From a virus (Duplodnaviria; Caudoviricetes): a DNA stretch of 24,258 nt. The position numbers and the translations under genes are program-made. The notes below the pieces were generated by a model. It made no database searches. It was given only the letters and a program-made list of their open reading frames with translations, and was not told where the DNA came from. Shown here in pieces: positions 6,863 to 22,105 of the stretch. The stretch's first letter is position 1. Each line of letters opens with the position of its first letter. The stretch spans positions 1 through 24,258 of IMG/VR virus record IMGVR_UViG_3300031519_000219; one strand, written 5' to 3'.

Positions 6863-9800
6863 TTAAGTCCTAGTTGGTGGCAGTCCGTTTATGTCCCAAC
6901 GAGACTCTATTCTAGCCGTTTTGCTTACTGCTTTTGCAACTACCAACATAAGATCATTTAAATTACCTCTCAGACTATTCATCTCAGAAGCCATAAGATC
7001 AGCTCTTTTAACTTCCGCTACGCTCTGTACTCTTTCGCCTTCATGCAATTCTGCCCTAAACCCATCAAAAGGAATTCTTTCTATACCGCTTGCTAAAGAG
7101 CCATCAGGCTTGGTTCTATTAAGAATTCCAGCCGCTGTACCACCGCCAATAACATCAGCGATAACGGATGGGTCTACGCCATTTGCACTTCCAACCATGT
7201 TTATCCATTGAGTAGCATAGCTGTCTAACTGATCTTGAAGGCTTACGCTTTTATTATTGCCATCTTCACTAGCAGAACCCAAAAAGGCTCCTTTTCCAAA
7301 ATTCCGGCCTCTTTCATCACTACCAGTAAAATTCTTCGCTAATAAATTAGGTGTAATGCCTACTGCTAATGCCGCTTCTGTTAATGCCGAATCAAGAGTA
7401 GCGAAAGAATCTACAACGGCACTAGCTGTGCTTTGTTCTTCCCTTCGCTTGAAGCCATAAAATTGGGCTCCTGAAGCAAACTTGGGGATAGCAAATTTTC
7501 TACTAGCATCAACACCAGCAAGATTTTGGGTTAACATTCCCGCATTAGCAGACATAGTTCCACTTTTGTCTAATAGCTTCGCAGCAACCGCCGCAACAGC
7601 AATAGCTATAGTCACAGGGTTAGTAGCAAGGGCAAGAAGTTTAGCTCCACCAGCTTGTAGTCCTGCTGTTACACCAGAGCCTGCCATAGCCGCCGCTGTA
7701 GGTGGACCCATAGTTCCCGCAGCAATACCAGTTGCACTACCTGTCATTCCAGCTATGAATTGACCTGCACCAGCAACCACACCGCCTAAAGTAGCACCAC
7801 CAGCCGCGCCAGCAGCAGCTCCACCAGTAGCTCCACCAGCAGCATTAGTAGCCACACTAGCAGCAGTGCTACCAGTAGCACCAGAAACCGCGCTGCCAGT
7901 TATAGAGGCAAACATTGATTTGGCTCCGTTTGTTATTGTGGCTATTATTCCATTCATACCGCCAGACAATGAGCCAAGAAACCCAGTTATCCCGCCTTCT
8001 CCAAAAATTATATCCATTATTTTCTTAGAGGCAAACTCTGAGACCATTGTTTTCCAGCCTTCTTTCACTGAAGAAAAGAAGCTCTTGAAATCCAACTTTC
8101 CAGAAATAATAGTGTCTTTTATCAATGTAGCAAAAGCCGTTTGAGTGTTCACTACCGCTGTTGCGAATGTTTGCTGCTCAACAGTAAGAGCGGTAACGGC
8201 AGGAGTCGCTGCCGAAGATGAAGAACCAACTGCTTCAATATTTGTTGCTGTAGTATCTGCTGCGGAGGCAACGGCTCCAGTATTTGTGGCAAGAGCTGCC
8301 ATGACTCCGTTTACAACCCTAAAAGAACCATCTTGTCCGGTATTTACAGTAATTGCTTTGCCTAAAAGGTTTACGTTTTCAGTTGTTTTATGAAATTCAG
8401 TTTTTAATACCCCTATTGAATCAGACGCTGATTTGATTTGATTTGCTGACGCATTTTGTAATGTTGTCGCAGTATTAACAATATCAGTACCAAAATCCTT
8501 AAAGGCTCCACCAACATTATTTACAGTTGTAGTGAATGAAGTGTAAACATTACTTAAAAAACCAGTCTCTTCTTTTACGTCAATCTGCTTTAATCTTTGC
8601 GCTTCAAATGCACTACTAATGCTATTAATTGAAGCTAATTTCTTATCATTAATAACTTTCATCTTTGCAGCAGTTACTGCTTCGCTATCATAAAGAGATT
8701 GGGCTTTTACTTTCATAGTCGCGTAAAAACTTGAAATATTTGTACTAAGGTTAGCGATGGAGTTCTTAACATTCATAAAAGCATTTTTAAAAACATCAAC
8801 AAAATTTGTTGCCGCAATTTTTGCATTTGTTGATATAAAGTTAAAAAGACCTGAATAGAAACCCACTAACGTATTTATAGCTGAAGCATAAAAATCTATT
8901 AATGGAGCAAATAAATCCGCTAAATACTTAAACAAACTTTGTACTTTTGAAGAAACCAAGTCAGCAAAGTCATCCCATTTAACTTTAATTTCTTTTAGAG
9001 CATTGCCAGTTACAATTGCTATCGCTTTAAAATAGACAATATAGGTTTCATAATCTATTCCAAAAACATTTTCTAATATTTTGTACAGCCCAAATAATGC
9101 AGCAACAGTAACGCCAATAGGACCACCTAAAGCAGATAATCCAACTTTTAGTATCCCCGCAGAGCTTGCGGTAGTTAAAAATGCAGTGCTAGTTGAGACA
9201 AGACTGACAATAACCTTAGTGAATAATATTACTGACAAAGTTTGTAATGATATGGTTAGTATTTTAATAAAATCATCAAACTTATCTGACTTTACAAAAT
9301 CATCAACTTTTCTGGAAAAATCAGTAGCAGCTTGAAGACTTTTTCTAATTGCTGGCTCTAACATTTTGCCAAAGGTAATTGCCAAACCTTCATTTGCTGA
9401 ATTTAAAGACAACATATCGCCTTCCATGTTGTCAAAATTTGTAGCTGCCATCTCGCTTGCTATACTTGTTCCTGTTATAGCTGCTTCTAAAGTCCTTGCG
9501 TCTCCAGCTCCCGATATCATTACCGCTGCCGATTTCATGGCTTCTGCGCCAAATAAACCAGTAAGCTCAGTAAGGCTCATATTTTCTGCCGCTAGATTTT
9601 CTAAAGCTCCAGCAAGACCAACTATAGAAGGCTTAAATTTATCTTCAGCTTCATTTTCTAGTTTTAATAAGACCTGCCTAAATCCTGTTCCTGCTTCAGC
9701 AGCAAATAATCCACCTTTTGCTAACAACTGAACACCAACATTCGCCTCTTCAAAACTTAGGCCAGCCAATTTAGCCGCAACACCAGCATTCTTCATTGCC

Positions 9801-16753: not shown

Positions 16754-18156
16754 TAGATTTCTTCGTCAAGGTCAACCATTGCGTCTTGTACGCCTATCTC
16801 TTCAGAGTATTCTTCCAGTGTTTTATCTCTATCGACTAGGCCATGTCTTTGCTGCCAGTTCAATAGATCACTCAAAGGAAGCGCACCTTGTAAGAACGAG
16901 GCAACCATTGCCGTAATATCTTGGGAGGTAGCATTAGGACGAATAAACTCTCTGTTGATAAGAAGTGTGGCTTCTTCATCCCCGCCCATAAACAGTTGTA
17001 CATAGCCTAGTGCTTGATTATAAGCCTCTGAGACATTGGACGATATTAGACTTAGAACACTATGCTGCGCCATTAACTCGCCATCTACTTGAGTTGCTGT
17101 CTTGGCTTGACCCGCTGGAGATAGAAACATAGCCCCTAGACCAATCATCATGTGAACTTTGTCCATCATTGCCTCTCTTGCAAGGCTATTCGGTTTAGCT
17201 TGAGCAAAGTCAAACTTCTCGCCAGATGGAACACCCATTAATGTACCAGAGCCAATAAACTGACCATTGTTTCTAAGGTCTTCAAGAGTATCGCCAGATA
17301 TGCCTGACATCCACGGTTGGACTTGGCCTATAACGAATACTGAATCTTCATAGATTGCTGAGTTGTTGTAATGTCCCACGTTAATCTTAGCTAGGTCGTA
17401 CATAGGAGCAAAATCAACTCGCGCAGTATTAGCCTCTGAGCCAACAAATACGAAAGGAATGCTTGTCAGTCTTTGACCTTTACTATCGAGCGGTACAGCT
17501 TCGCTATAAATATAATATTTATCTGTGTCTTTGTTTAGCCGCCATTCTCTCTGGAAATAACCGTCATTCTCTAATCGCAGCTCAATGAATATAGGGACTT
17601 CATTAAAACCAAAGCCGTCTTCATGTAATTCTTGTTCTACTGAAGACAAAACAATTAGTACAGGCTTGATTTTTGAGCCTATCTTCCTAACCTGCCAGTT
17701 CACTATCTGCTCTGCTGAGAACCGCGTAACCGTTGCGGCAGTCTCGTTATTAACCATCTCTTGTCTTGAGACATCGCCATCAACGCTTGGGAAGTCTATT
17801 AATAATCCTGCTCTTCCAACCCTTACAACATCCTTGAATACTTCTTGAGCCTGTTGATAGATAGATATTCCTGCTCCATCAATATCGTATCTGATGTAAT
17901 CTAAATCATCTGGGACTATACACTTGGCTGGCTCACTAAAAGCCTTTCCCAGAAACCCTTGTGCTGTATACCCAGCAATCGCATAAAAAACACTTCTATG
18001 AAAGAATTGCTTCCTGCGCTGAACAGCAGACATCGAGGCATCATGCGGGTTTATTTTGACTAGATATTTTGAGAGATTCTTGGCTTCGCAGATGTCATCT
18101 ACAAGCTGCCATTTTGGGATATTCAATTTATATTTGGGGTGTTCGAAGTTAATCAT
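16753..18156 (-). CDS. Portal protein (DUF4055 type)
   Basis: IDGAG, GRAGLLIDFP, IVNW, IPFVFVGS, P.YDLAKINVGHYNNSA motifs. Start placed at ATG 18156, which overlaps the TerL stop (ATGA), rather than 18204. Confidence 0.88.
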   Translation of the reverse strand: MINFEHPKYKLNIPKWQLVDDICEAKNLSKYLVKINPHDASMSAVQRRKQFFHRSVFYAIAGYTAQGFLGKAFSEPAKCIVPDDLDYIRYDIDGAGISIYQQAQEVFKDVVRVGRAGLLIDFPSVDGDVSRQEMVNNETAATVTRFSAEQIVNWQVRKIGSKIKPVLIVLSSVEQELHEDGFGFNEVPIFIELRLENDGYFQREWRLNKDTDKYYIYSEAVPLDSKGQRLTSIPFVFVGSEANTARVDFAPMYDLAKINVGHYNNSAIYEDSVFVIGQVQPWMSGISGDTLEDLRNNGQFIGSGTLMGVPSGEKFDFAQAKPNSLAREAMMDKVHMMIGLGAMFLSPAGQAKTATQVDGELMAQHSVLSLISSNVSEAYNQALGYVQLFMGGDEEATLLINREFIRPNATSQDITAMVASFLQGALPLSDLLNWQQRHGLVDRDKTLEEYSEEIGVQDAMVDLDEEI

Positions 18157-19397
18157 AGCGACATACCTATATTCGTAACCACGACAGGTCTGCCCAGCGA
18201 CCATTTGCGGTTGATAAAATAACCCGCCGCATCGACCCAGTCATCTATTGCAGGATGTTCACTGAACTTTTCGGGTACGCCCTTCATATAACCTTGCGAT
18301 TCTAGCGCATCAGTTAAGTGTGGGCAGGTATCCGTATTAATTAGCCATCTATCGTGCGATAGCAATCCGTTAACTGCATTAATCCGGTCTCTGACCATTG
18401 GATTAGCATTAGGACAGTCAACAGAATAACCGTGAGCGCGTATTATATCAATATCTGAACCAGTAGCGTTAGTGCTACCAGACTTCCCACTAGCGTCAGG
18501 ATAAACTATTATTTTCCTGCCTGCCCTCTCATACTTAGAAAGTCTTGAACAAAAGTCTCTAGTGTCGTGGCTAATAAACTCGTCAACTGTAATTGGATTC
18601 TTGCCGTCTATTACACTAACTATCGAACAGCAGCCGCCAATATTGAAATCAATACCAACGTATACATATCTATCATTGTCAGTAAGTATGCGGTCTGTGT
18701 GGTGTTTCTCTCTAGCAAAGAAGTGATAGACCTTGTTAACGGATAGGCTAACGAACTCCCCTTTTAAGAATAGATCGGCTAGAACTGGGTCGTAGTTATC
18801 TCTTATCTGTTGAATATAACCTTCTGGCAAGAAAGGATTAGATTCTGTAGGGGATTTTATTACAGTATAGCCATCTTGTAATGACTTGACCCATTTCTGA
18901 TATACAAACCCGCTATATCCTTGGTCTGGCGTAGTCACACAGCCGATAGTATTCCCAGCAGGGTTAGTACACTTCTGTCGGTTTCTTTCACTAATCTTTC
19001 TCCAAACTAATGCAGCCTTATCTTTAGGAAGTGTATCCAGCTCATCAACTATCGAGTGCGCTACCTCATAGGCCACAATTCGTTCAGGTCTATCGTATGA
19101 TCTAAGTATCATTGTCCCATAGCCTTGAATCTCTACAGTGTATTCAGAGCGGTTAGTTTTATAGCCTATACCTAGTTTTTCTAATTCTTCTTCAACTCCT
19201 GACAGTGCGCGTAATCTGAGAAGGTCATAGGTAGGCATATAGTATGCGCCATTGATGCTTGGGTCAGACATCATCAGGCATAGTAATCTATAAATGCCAG
19301 CCATAGTCTTACCGCTACCAAGTCCACCAACTAGAGCAGGGTATTTAGATTCAGAGCATACAAACTCTTCTTGGGGTTCAGTCAGGCTTAACAGCAC
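18153..19397 (-). CDS. terL: Terminase large subunit
   Basis: Walker A GGLGSGKT, Walker B SIVDELD, motif III TTP, nuclease GIDFN, YPDASG and DDWVDAAGY. Confidence 0.95.
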   Translation of the reverse strand: MLLSLTEPQEEFVCSESKYPALVGGLGSGKTMAGIYRLLCLMMSDPSINGAYYMPTYDLLRLRALSGVEEELEKLGIGYKTNRSEYTVEIQGYGTMILRSYDRPERIVAYEVAHSIVDELDTLPKDKAALVWRKISERNRQKCTNPAGNTIGCVTTPDQGYSGFVYQKWVKSLQDGYTVIKSPTESNPFLPEGYIQQIRDNYDPVLADLFLKGEFVSLSVNKVYHFFAREKHHTDRILTDNDRYVYVGIDFNIGGCCSIVSVIDGKNPITVDEFISHDTRDFCSRLSKYERAGRKIIVYPDASGKSGSTNATGSDIDIIRAHGYSVDCPNANPMVRDRINAVNGLLSHDRWLINTDTCPHLTDALESQGYMKGVPEKFSEHPAIDDWVDAAGYFINRKWSLGRPVVVTNIGMSL

Positions 19398-19752
19398 GAA
19401 TGATCTGTATTACGTTATCTGTCGTTGTAGATATGGTCGTTGTATCTTGCTCTTTCCATCCTGCCTGAGTCTTTAGATAGAATATTGCCGCAGTTGTATT
19501 ACCATTTTGTGCTTGATTGACCAGATTACCCGCAACACTAGCAATAGCCTTGCTTTTTCCTTTTTTATAAGCGTCAGAAACCTCTGACTGTCTTTCTTCA
19601 ATAGCTCGAAAGGTAGTCTCAGATATTCCAAAGTAATCAGATAACTGAGCTTTAGTTAAAACTGATGCAAGTTTTCCAACCATAATAATTTGATCTTTAT
19701 CAAACTCAACTATAGGTCTGCCGCCGCCTTCACCTTGATTGCCCACTTTCAT
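19378..19752 (-). CDS. terS: Terminase small subunit
   Basis: GGRP start, HTH (TKAQLSDYFGISETTF), AYKKGK and GNTTAAIFYLKTQAGWKE; overlaps the TerL start. Confidence 0.88.
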   Translation of the reverse strand: MKVGNQGEGGGRPIVEFDKDQIIMVGKLASVLTKAQLSDYFGISETTFRAIEERQSEVSDAYKKGKSKAIASVAGNLVNQAQNGNTTAAIFYLKTQAGWKEQDTTTISTTTDNVIQIIRAVKPD

Positions 19753-20690
19753 TGACTATCCTTATTGCTTTCGCAAGCATTCTCAAAAAATAAAACTATA
19801 TCTTTTTCAAGATTTAATGTTTGGTTTATAGCGTCAATTTTCCACTTCATTTGCAAACTCATCAATTCTTCATAGTTATCAGCAGAATAATTGTTTAAAT
19901 CCTCATTACAAGAAACAATAAAAGGTTCATAGCCAATAAGGCCTGCCTTTTTTATATTTGACAAACAGTTTATGTCAAACAGAGTTACTACATTACTTCC
20001 AATATTTTCGTAGAATCTATTTGATAAATTATTAAATCTTGTATGAGTTGAAACATCCTCAATATATAAGCTAAATCTAAAAAGACTTAAATCACCTCTG
20101 CTAATGTCCAATTCTTTGATTAACGGTGAAGTACTGCCATCTTTTTTAAATTCAATAGAGTTTTTATTCTTACAAGAAAGATAAATATTCTTTTTTAAAT
20201 ATATACCATGATATTTTTTCCTATCTGGTCTATGAGTCCCAAAGTAAATATGGTCATACTTTTTTTCCTTAACAGTTTGAAACTCATTGAAAAGTATAAG
20301 ATTTAAATTTTTTGTTACCTTGTTTTTGACAGATTTAAATTTATTAATAAAATCATAATTGGCTAAAATATAAGAAGGTCTTTCCTTTAATTGATTATTA
20401 AAAAAAGAGTTTGGAACTACATCGTATTCGTTGGCAATCCATATATAAGGTGAATTATTGTTAAAAAACAATGCTTTTAATTTTTTATGAGGTCTAAAAA
20501 AAGCAGAGCCGTAATGTGATACTAAAAGGTCATACTTAACGCTAGGATTGATTCTTTCTTGAGTATTAGAGTAAAAAATATCAACTTTATGTCCTTTGTC
20601 TTCTAAGACTTTATTAATCCATATAGCGTTTTTTATATAAGCAGATATGGTATTTCCCGTAGGATGTGGTATTTGACAAAAAATTCTCAT
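19749..20690 (-). CDS. GT-B glycosyltransferase resembling T4 DNA beta-glucosyltransferase
   Basis: Motifs NAIWINKVLEDKGHKVDIF, YDLLV, IWIANE, KYDHIYFGTHRPDR, SLYIED, NRFYENIGSNVVTLFD, FIVSCNEDL and ELMSLQ occur in the order of the equivalent T4 BGT segments (recalled from memory); very AT-rich. Confidence 0.65.
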   Translation of the reverse strand: MRIFCQIPHPTGNTISAYIKNAIWINKVLEDKGHKVDIFYSNTQERINPSVKYDLLVSHYGSAFFRPHKKLKALFFNNNSPYIWIANEYDVVPNSFFNNQLKERPSYILANYDFINKFKSVKNKVTKNLNLILFNEFQTVKEKKYDHIYFGTHRPDRKKYHGIYLKKNIYLSCKNKNSIEFKKDGSTSPLIKELDISRGDLSLFRFSLYIEDVSTHTRFNNLSNRFYENIGSNVVTLFDINCLSNIKKAGLIGYEPFIVSCNEDLNNYSADNYEELMSLQMKWKIDAINQTLNLEKDIVLFFENACESNKDSQ

Positions 20691-21253
20691 CTCTTAACCA
20701 TTAGTTTTTCAAAGTCTTTATAGAAAATTTCGTTTTTTTGTAAACGCAAAAAGCCCTGAAGTTGCTCCATTTCCTCAATAGTTTCGCATTTAATTAAAAA
20801 GTTTTGATTTTCTTTGTATGTTTCCTCTGTAATATCTATATCAAGGTCATCATCACTGTTAAGCATATAGGCCAATTCATCAACATTAAATCCTATCAAA
20901 CTTATATCAAAATCTAGCATTTGCAGGGTTTCTATCTCCTGCTTTAACATATTTTCGTTCCATGCAGCATTTAGTGCTAGTTGGTTATCGGCTATAATAT
21001 AAGCCTGCCTTTGAATTTCTGTTAAGCCTTTGAGAGTAATAGTAGGGACTTCATCTATACCTAGAATTTTGGCAGCTTCAGTACGCCCGTGACCAGCTAT
21101 AATCATGCCCTTTTCATCAATTAAGACAGGGTTAGTGAAGCCGAATTCAACTATAGATGCTGTGATTTGATGAATCTGCGCCTCTGAATGAGTGCGCGAA
21201 TTGTTGATATACGGAATTAGATTGTCCGTAGCAATGTATTGTATCTCTAACAT
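20687..21253 (-). CDS. ParB/Srx N-terminal domain protein, no fused methyltransferase
   Basis: LIPYINNSRTHS..QI.QI.ASI.EFGFTNPVLID...IIAGHGR...AYIIADN.LALNAAW. ATG 21253 preferred over GTG 21259 because AGGGGTG serves as its RBS. Confidence 0.9.
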   Translation of the reverse strand: MLEIQYIATDNLIPYINNSRTHSEAQIHQITASIVEFGFTNPVLIDEKGMIIAGHGRTEAAKILGIDEVPTITLKGLTEIQRQAYIIADNQLALNAAWNENMLKQEIETLQMLDFDISLIGFNVDELAYMLNSDDDLDIDITEETYKENQNFLIKCETIEEMEQLQGFLRLQKNEIFYKDFEKLMVKR

Positions 21254-21255
21254 AA

Positions 21256-21303
21256 TCACCCCTAGTGATCTGGTTTAGCCTCTGGCTAGGGGTGAGTGTA
21301 CCA
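21256..21303 (-). promoter_or_regulatory. Extended -10 promoter plus RBS-sequestering 10-bp inverted repeat
   Basis: TG-G-TACACT at 21303-21295; perfect inverted repeat TCACCCCTAG/CTAGGGGTGA at 21256-21265 and 21286-21295. Confidence 0.55.
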
Positions 21304-21703: not shown

Positions 21704-22105
21704 TTAGTTTGAATAGAATATGTGTCTACCTATCTTGCGCGTAACATCTAGCCCTGCTGACCAATACGGTTGTACATCATCACGATGATAGAATACTGCC
21801 CCATCTGTAACATCAAATAATCTAATACTGGCCAACATAGCGATTGATAAGGCCACGCTATAAGCCTCTTGGTCATTAATCGTCTCTAGTTTGCCATCGC
21901 ACCAATAGCTGAAATGACATTGGTTCCTGATGGGATGATCACCGATATACCTTGCTTGCTTTGTAACTTCGCAGGAGGTTGAAGGGAACTTGTCAGACTC
22001 AACTCTATTGATAATCGTATTAGCTACCGCAAGCTGCCCTTCTAAGGGCTCAGACCGAGCCTCAAAGTAGACAGCCATAGCTAGACAAGTTAGTGAAGCA
22101 ATCAT
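21704..22105 (-). CDS. Cell wall hydrolase, SleB/Hydrolase_2 family
   Basis: CLAMAVYFEARSEPLEGQLAVANTIINRV...CHFSYWCDGK...GAVFYH...IGRHIFY; catalytic Glu in EAR. Confidence 0.92.
   Translation of the reverse strand: MIASLTCLAMAVYFEARSEPLEGQLAVANTIINRVESDKFPSTSCEVTKQARYIGDHPIRNQCHFSYWCDGKLETINDQEAYSVALSIAMLASIRLFDVTDGAVFYHRDDVQPYWSAGLDVTRKIGRHIFYSN

Follow-up and report, generated by a model that had tools for sequence, protein, structure and literature searches.

Gene organization of the locus

The window, i.e. the whole 24,258-nt stretch of DNA analyzed (IMG/VR record IMGVR_UViG_3300031519_000219), covers most of a small tailed-phage genome, whose minus strand encodes the terminase and portal, the head and tail proteins and the lysis functions. 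Genome G001 is 99.97–100% identical to it across window positions 1–23164 and provides 6.6 kb more; G002, a relative of the window genome, appears to wrap around. On the minus strand, parB (20687–21253; ATG start, 188 aa, with an in-frame GTG at 21259) is followed by a gene encoding a 313-aa protein (19749–20690), by terS, encoding the terminase small subunit (19378–19752; phrog_309, E 1e-19), and by terL, encoding the large subunit (18153–19397; PF03237, phrog_2). ATGA overlaps connect parB with the 313-aa ORF (20687–20690) and the latter with terS, the start codon of which overlaps the preceding stop codon (19749–19752), while terS and terL share 20 nt. These ORFs, their overlaps and the identities of ParB-N, terS and terL had been proposed in a sequence-only reading of the locus; the coordinates proved exact and the profile matches bear out the identities, the ParB N-terminal domain being recognized by PF02195 (E 4e-4, below the curated cut-off) and by phrog_15396 (E 4e-55). 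A ParB-N gene and an enzyme gene thus lie directly upstream of terS/terL, and the locus is of the known ParB–terminase type, as described in PMC4738411. The GC content of the gene for the 313-aa protein is 27%, versus 40.5% for the window. The tape-measure gene contains another low-GC stretch (8001–9500, 33–35%). Two cell-wall hydrolase genes are also found on the minus strand, a SleB-type one upstream of the cassette (21704–22105) and a phage lysozyme gene after the holin gene (123–560).

An RNA hairpin with a 10-bp stem is predicted on the minus strand at 21256–21295, where it covers the parB ribosome-binding site. Its z-score is −1.8. In an alignment of 18 sister sequences, the hairpin is retained irrespective of the cassette that follows, with one-sided changes only and no compensatory ones. 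Translational control of parB, which would be reminiscent of the translational block on Mu mom, is therefore possible, the evidence being suggestive only.

The 313-aa protein is a predicted BGT-like glycosyltransferase

The protein itself has no sequence match in Pfam, PHROG, NCBIfam or the PDB. The profile of its unnamed family, which comprises 343 clusters, aligns with T4 DNA β-glucosyltransferase (BGT, from NC_000866) with a probability of 96.7% over 290 columns at 18% identity. The best structural match is also T4 BGT and the two top structural matches are both DNA enzymes; the GT-B fold is nearest to that of BGT, GT4 structures scoring more than 3 Z units lower. The likeness to BGT that had been noticed by eye is thus real, and a comparison of BGT with CgeB/GT4-type enzymes comes out in favor of BGT. 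A CgeB/GT4-like non-DNA glycosyltransferase was rejected as an identity for the protein, PF13524 giving weak matches in 6/123 family members only (best 8e-5). As for the BGT family models, PF09198 is matched by none of the 123 members at E 0.01 and phrog_7922 by six (best 5e-7).

In the profile alignment, E88, R154, D212, R225 and E228 correspond to D100, R191, D258, R269 and E272 of BGT, respectively, and R157 lies one column from BGT R195. E88 is the predicted catalytic residue and R154, R157, R225 and E228 are predicted to bind UDP; the residues matching the BGT set, in which these arginines and glutamates presumably contact UDP, are invariant in the family. Like BGT, the enzyme is basic, as judged from its pI. 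Altogether, these data support a BGT-like fold with a BGT-like active site. The enzyme differs from T4 BGT, a member of CAZy family GT63, in being about 40 residues shorter, in sharing only 16–19% identity with it across comparisons, in carrying N21 in place of BGT E22 and in having the invariant residues E211 and H216, unlike BGT, around the predicted donor site. The low identity and the N21 replacement mean that its chemistry may differ from that of BGT. Also unlike BGT, it has no gp42 partner and is accompanied in nearly every locus by a ParB C-terminal domain; the T4 b-gt neighborhood has no such domain.

A ParB C-terminal domain is co-inherited with the enzyme

ParB consists of an N-terminal domain (20924–21253; residues 1–110, AGHGR motif), which is common to most cassettes found in the same slot in sister phages, followed by an acidic linker and a C-terminal domain of about 50 residues (20687–20902; residues 118–188) with an invariant C156 and the motif DI..E..NF.IKC..E....L....I.Y..F. 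The earlier designation of the gene as "ParB-N" therefore stands for the N-domain and misses the C-terminal domain, which travels with the enzyme. We examined 83 loci, namely 80 of the 228 found plus L010–L012. Upstream DNA is available for 81 of them, and in 78 of these the C-terminal domain precedes the enzyme, directly abutting it in 77; it is fused to ParB-N in 72. Because the domain profile was built from the same loci, independent matches are limited to L010–L012, L043, L081, L087 and L172–L174. The three loci without an upstream C-terminal domain (L088–L090) form a single lineage. In this larger-phage lineage (L088-L090:9839-10831), the glycosyltransferase has neither ParB nor the C-terminal domain and is encoded near a deaminase-like gene.

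Comparison with six close relatives shows that the C-terminal domain and the enzyme are 94–96% identical at the DNA level, versus 72–74% for ParB-N and 77–81% for terS/terL; the mobile unit is therefore the domain plus the enzyme, recombining within parB. Each cassette type found in the slot has its own ParB C-terminus, and the C-terminal domain is likely a partner-specific adaptor. In the T4-like phages S13 and Ci1, the gene upstream of the enzyme has lost the GHGR motif but retains the linker and two copies of the C-terminal domain, and in L076, L087 and L174 the C-terminal domain stands alone, the N-domain being absent.

A described parallel is provided by the ParB-dependent phage T-dioxygenases (PMC13229309), with which the system shares the N-domain/linker/C-terminal domain organization of ParB, the absence of a DNA-binding domain and a cognate DNA-modifying partner. 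Our case differs in that ParB is paired with a glycosyltransferase and that its C-terminal sequence is unlike that of the TET-linked ParBs of sister phages. According to the same text, activation of the dioxygenase needs both ParB domains, the NTP motif is dispensable in some members, and no stable complex was trapped. Since NTP-site mutants of this related TET-activating ParB kept activation, and since the nucleotide motif of ParB-N is lost in S13/Ci1 and the whole N-domain in the Csf-linked loci, we regard CTP dependence of ParB acting with the glycosyltransferase as doubtful. An identification of the protein as a chromosome-partition ParB (ParABS) was rejected: TIGR00180 matches residues 19–90 only of the 188, below cut-off, and there is no ParA among the ORFs of the window.

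The slot is shared with known DNA-modifying cassettes

The slot upstream of the terminase genes was surveyed in 78 loci fetched by terL, of which 54 had enough upstream DNA to be analyzed. Among the 29 loci with terL at least 78% identical (one being the window's own genome), six carry the BGT-like cassette. The other 23 slots contain, as identified by scanning one or a few representatives per cluster, TET (6), the glycosyltransferase TAGT without TET (3), an ABC-ATPase–GNAT fusion, which we take to be a DNA-modifying family (8), Mom (3) or FolE/QueD/QueE/QueC/TGT (3). All 23 alternative cassettes hence belong to known or predicted DNA-modifying families, in agreement with the earlier statement that phage ParB-N genes beside terminase often carry or adjoin DNA-modifying enzymes. 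Of all observations, this exchange speaks most strongly for DNA as the substrate of the enzyme, and it supports the role in DNA modification initially proposed for it. In more distant relatives, the slot holds ParB with a PAPS reductase or ParB fused to an N6/N4 methylase. In L097, whose terL is 99% identical, it holds a glycosyltransferase with TET. Thus the slot is that of the ParB–terminase (ParB-Tls) loci (PMC4738411, citing Iyer et al. 2013), with TET, TAGT, Mom, methylase, PAPS-reductase and deazaguanine cassettes in sister phages; what differs is the cargo, here a lone BGT-like GT-B enzyme without a priming enzyme.

Several other cargoes were encountered. Sister phages L104:792-1721, L111, L123 and L133 encode ParB with a TAGT (GT-A) glycosyltransferase, often with a cytidylyltransferase; no TET was found beside these cassettes in the two records searched, and ParB plus TAGT without TET is a second orphan glycosyltransferase of the same slot. 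The TET cassettes of very close relatives (L103:689-1974, L108:395-2918 and L121:874-3873) include a P-loop kinase, a nearby TGT-like gene, or a nucleotidyltransferase/kinase plus TAGT, and are further hypermodification variants. In L141:3055-4215, a fatty-acid-desaturase-family gene located between a ParB–methylase fusion and terS is a candidate further cargo.

Genomic context of the cassette

A terL gene lies at most 1.5 kb downstream of the enzyme gene in 62/83 loci; terS alone is present in 2, 5 are too short and terL is absent from 14. Counted by enzyme clusters (90% identity), terL is downstream in 39/51, and the adjoining terminases belong to three families. In several loci without a near terL, the next gene is an HNH gene, a common start of the packaging module. 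The true exceptions to terminase adjacency are the T4-like phages S13 and Ci1, in which the ParB/enzyme pair lies between uvsY and uvsW, and the Csf-linked loci.

The latter (L076:6412-11293, L087:6-2580 and, in a Massilibacteroides MAG, L174:7097-11498) are three homologous type IV CRISPR-like operons in phage-gene surroundings. The enzyme is encoded inside csf1–csf2–csf3-like operons, the Csf1, Csf2 and Csf3 matches being below cut-off, with a Cas6-like gene in L076. This resembles the type IV-B Csf complexes (PMC8175902), except that the accessory protein there is CysH-like and that here the stand-alone C-terminal domain, the glycosyltransferase and a protein resembling TGT make up the accessory set. 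No cas genes occur in the window.

Among 50,697 phage records, the family was clear only in three cultured phages, Cronobacter phage S13, LPCS28 and Citrobacter phage Ci1; one query also matched T4-type BGTs weakly. The whole annotation of S13 shows no gp42 and, in the place of the T4 dCTPase, a trimeric dUTPase; the S13 thymidylate synthase has an Asn at the specificity position. S13 retains Alc and DenB, which in T4 act against cytosine-containing DNA. According to PMC8056088, the presence of Alc and DenB is a possible sign of non-canonical bases, and other T4-like phages keep both without a known enzyme.

Search for a priming enzyme and for restriction-site avoidance

Phage DNA glycosylation, as described in PMC13326640 and 10.1101/2023.12.21.572611, starts from a base hydroxylated by a hydroxymethylase, a hydroxylase or TET. 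No hydroxymethylase, C5-methylase or TET gene was found in the window, as had been noted, nor in near-complete relatives. We extended the search to 45 carriers: 43 IMG/VR records, 8 of them at least 90% complete and the rest fragments, and 2 complete GenBank phages. TET/JBP was found in 0/45 carriers by searches that were positive in 3/5 sister-phage controls, and gp42 dCMP hydroxymethylase likewise in 0/45, most records being fragments, with a positive T4 control; the thymidylate-synthase family was present in 3/45, all of the S13 lineage, and a C5-methylase in 2/45. Of the extra ORFs of G001/G002, 28 were scanned and yielded only recombination, SSB, replication-initiator and lysis genes, the recombination and replication genes of this ~31-kb genome being lambda-like only. 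A Pfam scan of 171 of the 172 called ORFs (90–700 aa) of four near-complete carriers revealed neither an oxygenase nor ThyA, most ORFs matching nothing. It had been suggested that the acceptor base is made elsewhere in the genome or is unconventional; the former is not supported by the near-complete relatives, in which no priming gene was found, and the acceptor appears to be made by no recognizable phage gene.

In most carriers, the neighborhood of the cassette is free of sugar-pathway genes, and in most loci the enzyme gene lies directly between parB and terS, leaving no space for a third gene. GT2 glycosyltransferases are encoded in G023 and G009, and further sugar-pathway genes in G023. 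In the latter (L178:13614-17454), divergent nucleotide-sugar dehydrogenase and epimerase genes adjoin the parB/enzyme pair; a GT2/cytidylyltransferase/DAHP-synthase cluster is found at another place in this genome.

The observed/expected ratio of 6-mer palindromes is 0.62–0.63 in G001 and G002, which represent the window's lineage, indicating strong avoidance; it is 0.50–0.75 in sisters with known cassettes and 0.85 in S13, between RB49 (0.66) and T4 (0.95). A 34.7-kb carrier, G009 (L182–L183), has no GATC, GGCC, ACGT or CGCG site at all. Palindrome avoidance in carriers speaks against protection of the whole genome, but it is seen in sisters with known cassettes as well. The anti-restriction role of the cassette is one that we infer only.

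Discussion

On balance, we favor the following explanation: the locus is a mobile two-gene cassette in which a ParB with a partner-specific C-terminal domain would assist a BGT-like enzyme that, late in infection, likely adds a sugar directly to a canonical base of the phage DNA just replicated, probably to blunt host nucleases. What computation shows is a BGT-like fold with conserved active-site residues, joint inheritance of enzyme and C-terminal domain, a slot otherwise used by known DNA-modifying cassettes, and no TET or hydroxymethylase in the searches. The cassette would be expressed late, along with the terminase operon, and the hairpin over the parB ribosome-binding site possibly gates this expression. 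The ParB C-terminal domain would engage the enzyme and ParB-N would retain it on double-stranded DNA, as has been proposed for the ParBs that activate TET; the enzyme would then flip a base into its cleft, where E88 (D100 in BGT) would activate it, the donor being a host UDP-sugar, and modification may occur at some sites only. That the substrate is DNA is highly probable. That the acceptor is a canonical base is somewhat better than an even guess; it would most likely be an exocyclic amine, a class of poor nucleophiles, with cytosine N4 as the first guess. Cytosine was considered because S13 keeps the cytosine-sensing Alc/DenB without gp42, but the argument is weak since other phages keep Alc/DenB without a known enzyme and the family was seen only in S13, Ci1 and LPCS28; we thus look on cytosine in particular as possible but rather doubtful.

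The first reading of the locus had ParB-N recruit the enzyme during packaging; ParB would then couple it physically to the terminase, and bases or freshly cut ends of the DNA would be glycosylated. The frequency of terL downstream of the cassette, in loci (62/83), enzyme clusters (39/51) and three terminase families alike, and the overlapping start and stop codons of parB, the enzyme gene and terS fit with this scheme, and PMC4738411 predicts that ParB–terminase loci modify DNA as part of packaging. We nevertheless find it unlikely: the pair is retained away from terminase in S13, Ci1 and the Csf operons; a specific interface would resist both the exchange of the cassette at 94–96% identity while terS is only 77–80% identical and its occurrence beside unrelated terminases; and a TET of the same locus kind is activated by ParB in Escherichia coli without terminase (PMC13229309). 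Because the pair is also found at uvsY/uvsW, in Csf operons and without a nearby terL in 14/83 loci, its position beside terminase may reflect late co-expression instead, and late timing explains it as well as physical coupling does. Timing alone would also account for the late operon if the enzyme glycosylated virion proteins or another non-DNA acceptor, but we give little credit to such an acceptor given that the two top structural matches are DNA enzymes, that the protein is basic like BGT, that the 23 alternative cassettes are all of known or predicted DNA-modifying families and that the T4-like carriers place the enzyme among replication and recombination genes.

If DNA is the substrate, the enzyme might, like BGT, glycosylate a primed (e.g. 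hydroxylated) base, the primer coming from an unrecognized phage gene, the host or a co-infecting phage. The described phage DNA glycosyltransferases act on pre-existing hydroxyls (PMC13326640 and 10.1101/2023.12.21.572611), the catalytic acid E88 is kept, most carrier records are fragments (only 8/43 IMG/VR carriers are at least 90% complete), most ORFs of the four near-complete carriers have no Pfam match, and an acceptor base could be inserted by the TGT-like protein encoded next to the enzyme in the three type IV Csf loci. However, with TET and gp42 in 0/45 carriers, a mobile unit made up of enzyme and C-terminal domain alone, too little space for a third gene between parB and terS in most loci, and a ~31-kb genome whose recombination and replication genes are lambda-like only, we consider priming improbable. 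Even less credible to us is an action on DNA other than on a base amine, with sugar added to backbone phosphates, nicks or ends, or from a donor other than UDP-hexose: E211, H216 and N21 do differ from BGT around the predicted donor site and nucleotide-sugar dehydrogenase and epimerase genes adjoin parB in G023, but the residues matching the UDP-binding set of BGT are invariant and sugar-pathway genes are missing from the vicinity of the cassette in most carriers.

The locus type and the fold are already known; what is new is that a BGT-like enzyme travels unaccompanied by a priming gene. Known counterparts include the TET-associated glycosyltransferases, including the GT-B families GT53, GT66 and GT94, which have BGT-like folds, glycosylate DNA after replication and have ParB/terminase neighbors but need a C5-methylase and TET for 5hmC, neither of which accompanies the window's enzyme; glycosyltransferases without a TET or ThyS neighbor were set aside as less likely to be DNA-modifying (10.1101/2023.12.21.572611). 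Our literature search, whose scope left out Iyer 2013 and the supplements of the papers, found no description of the BGT-like family.

In conclusion, a 343-cluster family that moves without a priming gene means that a normal base is glycosylated directly or that priming follows a route as yet unknown, each of which would be new DNA chemistry. We tentatively propose, at slightly less than an even chance, that this widespread family attaches sugar to an unmodified DNA base in a single step, without prior hydroxylation or methylation and probably through an N-linkage, and that a small swappable adaptor plugs the enzyme into ParB–terminase loci, a degenerate T4-like ParB or Csf complexes. If true, the cultured phage S13 would contain a natural DNA base not known before, and the cassette would be a two-gene anti-restriction module, possibly usable as a reagent for labeling native DNA. 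Finally, since the ParB C-terminal domain varies with the partner enzyme, the activation of DNA-modifying enzymes by ParB could be approached by domain swaps.
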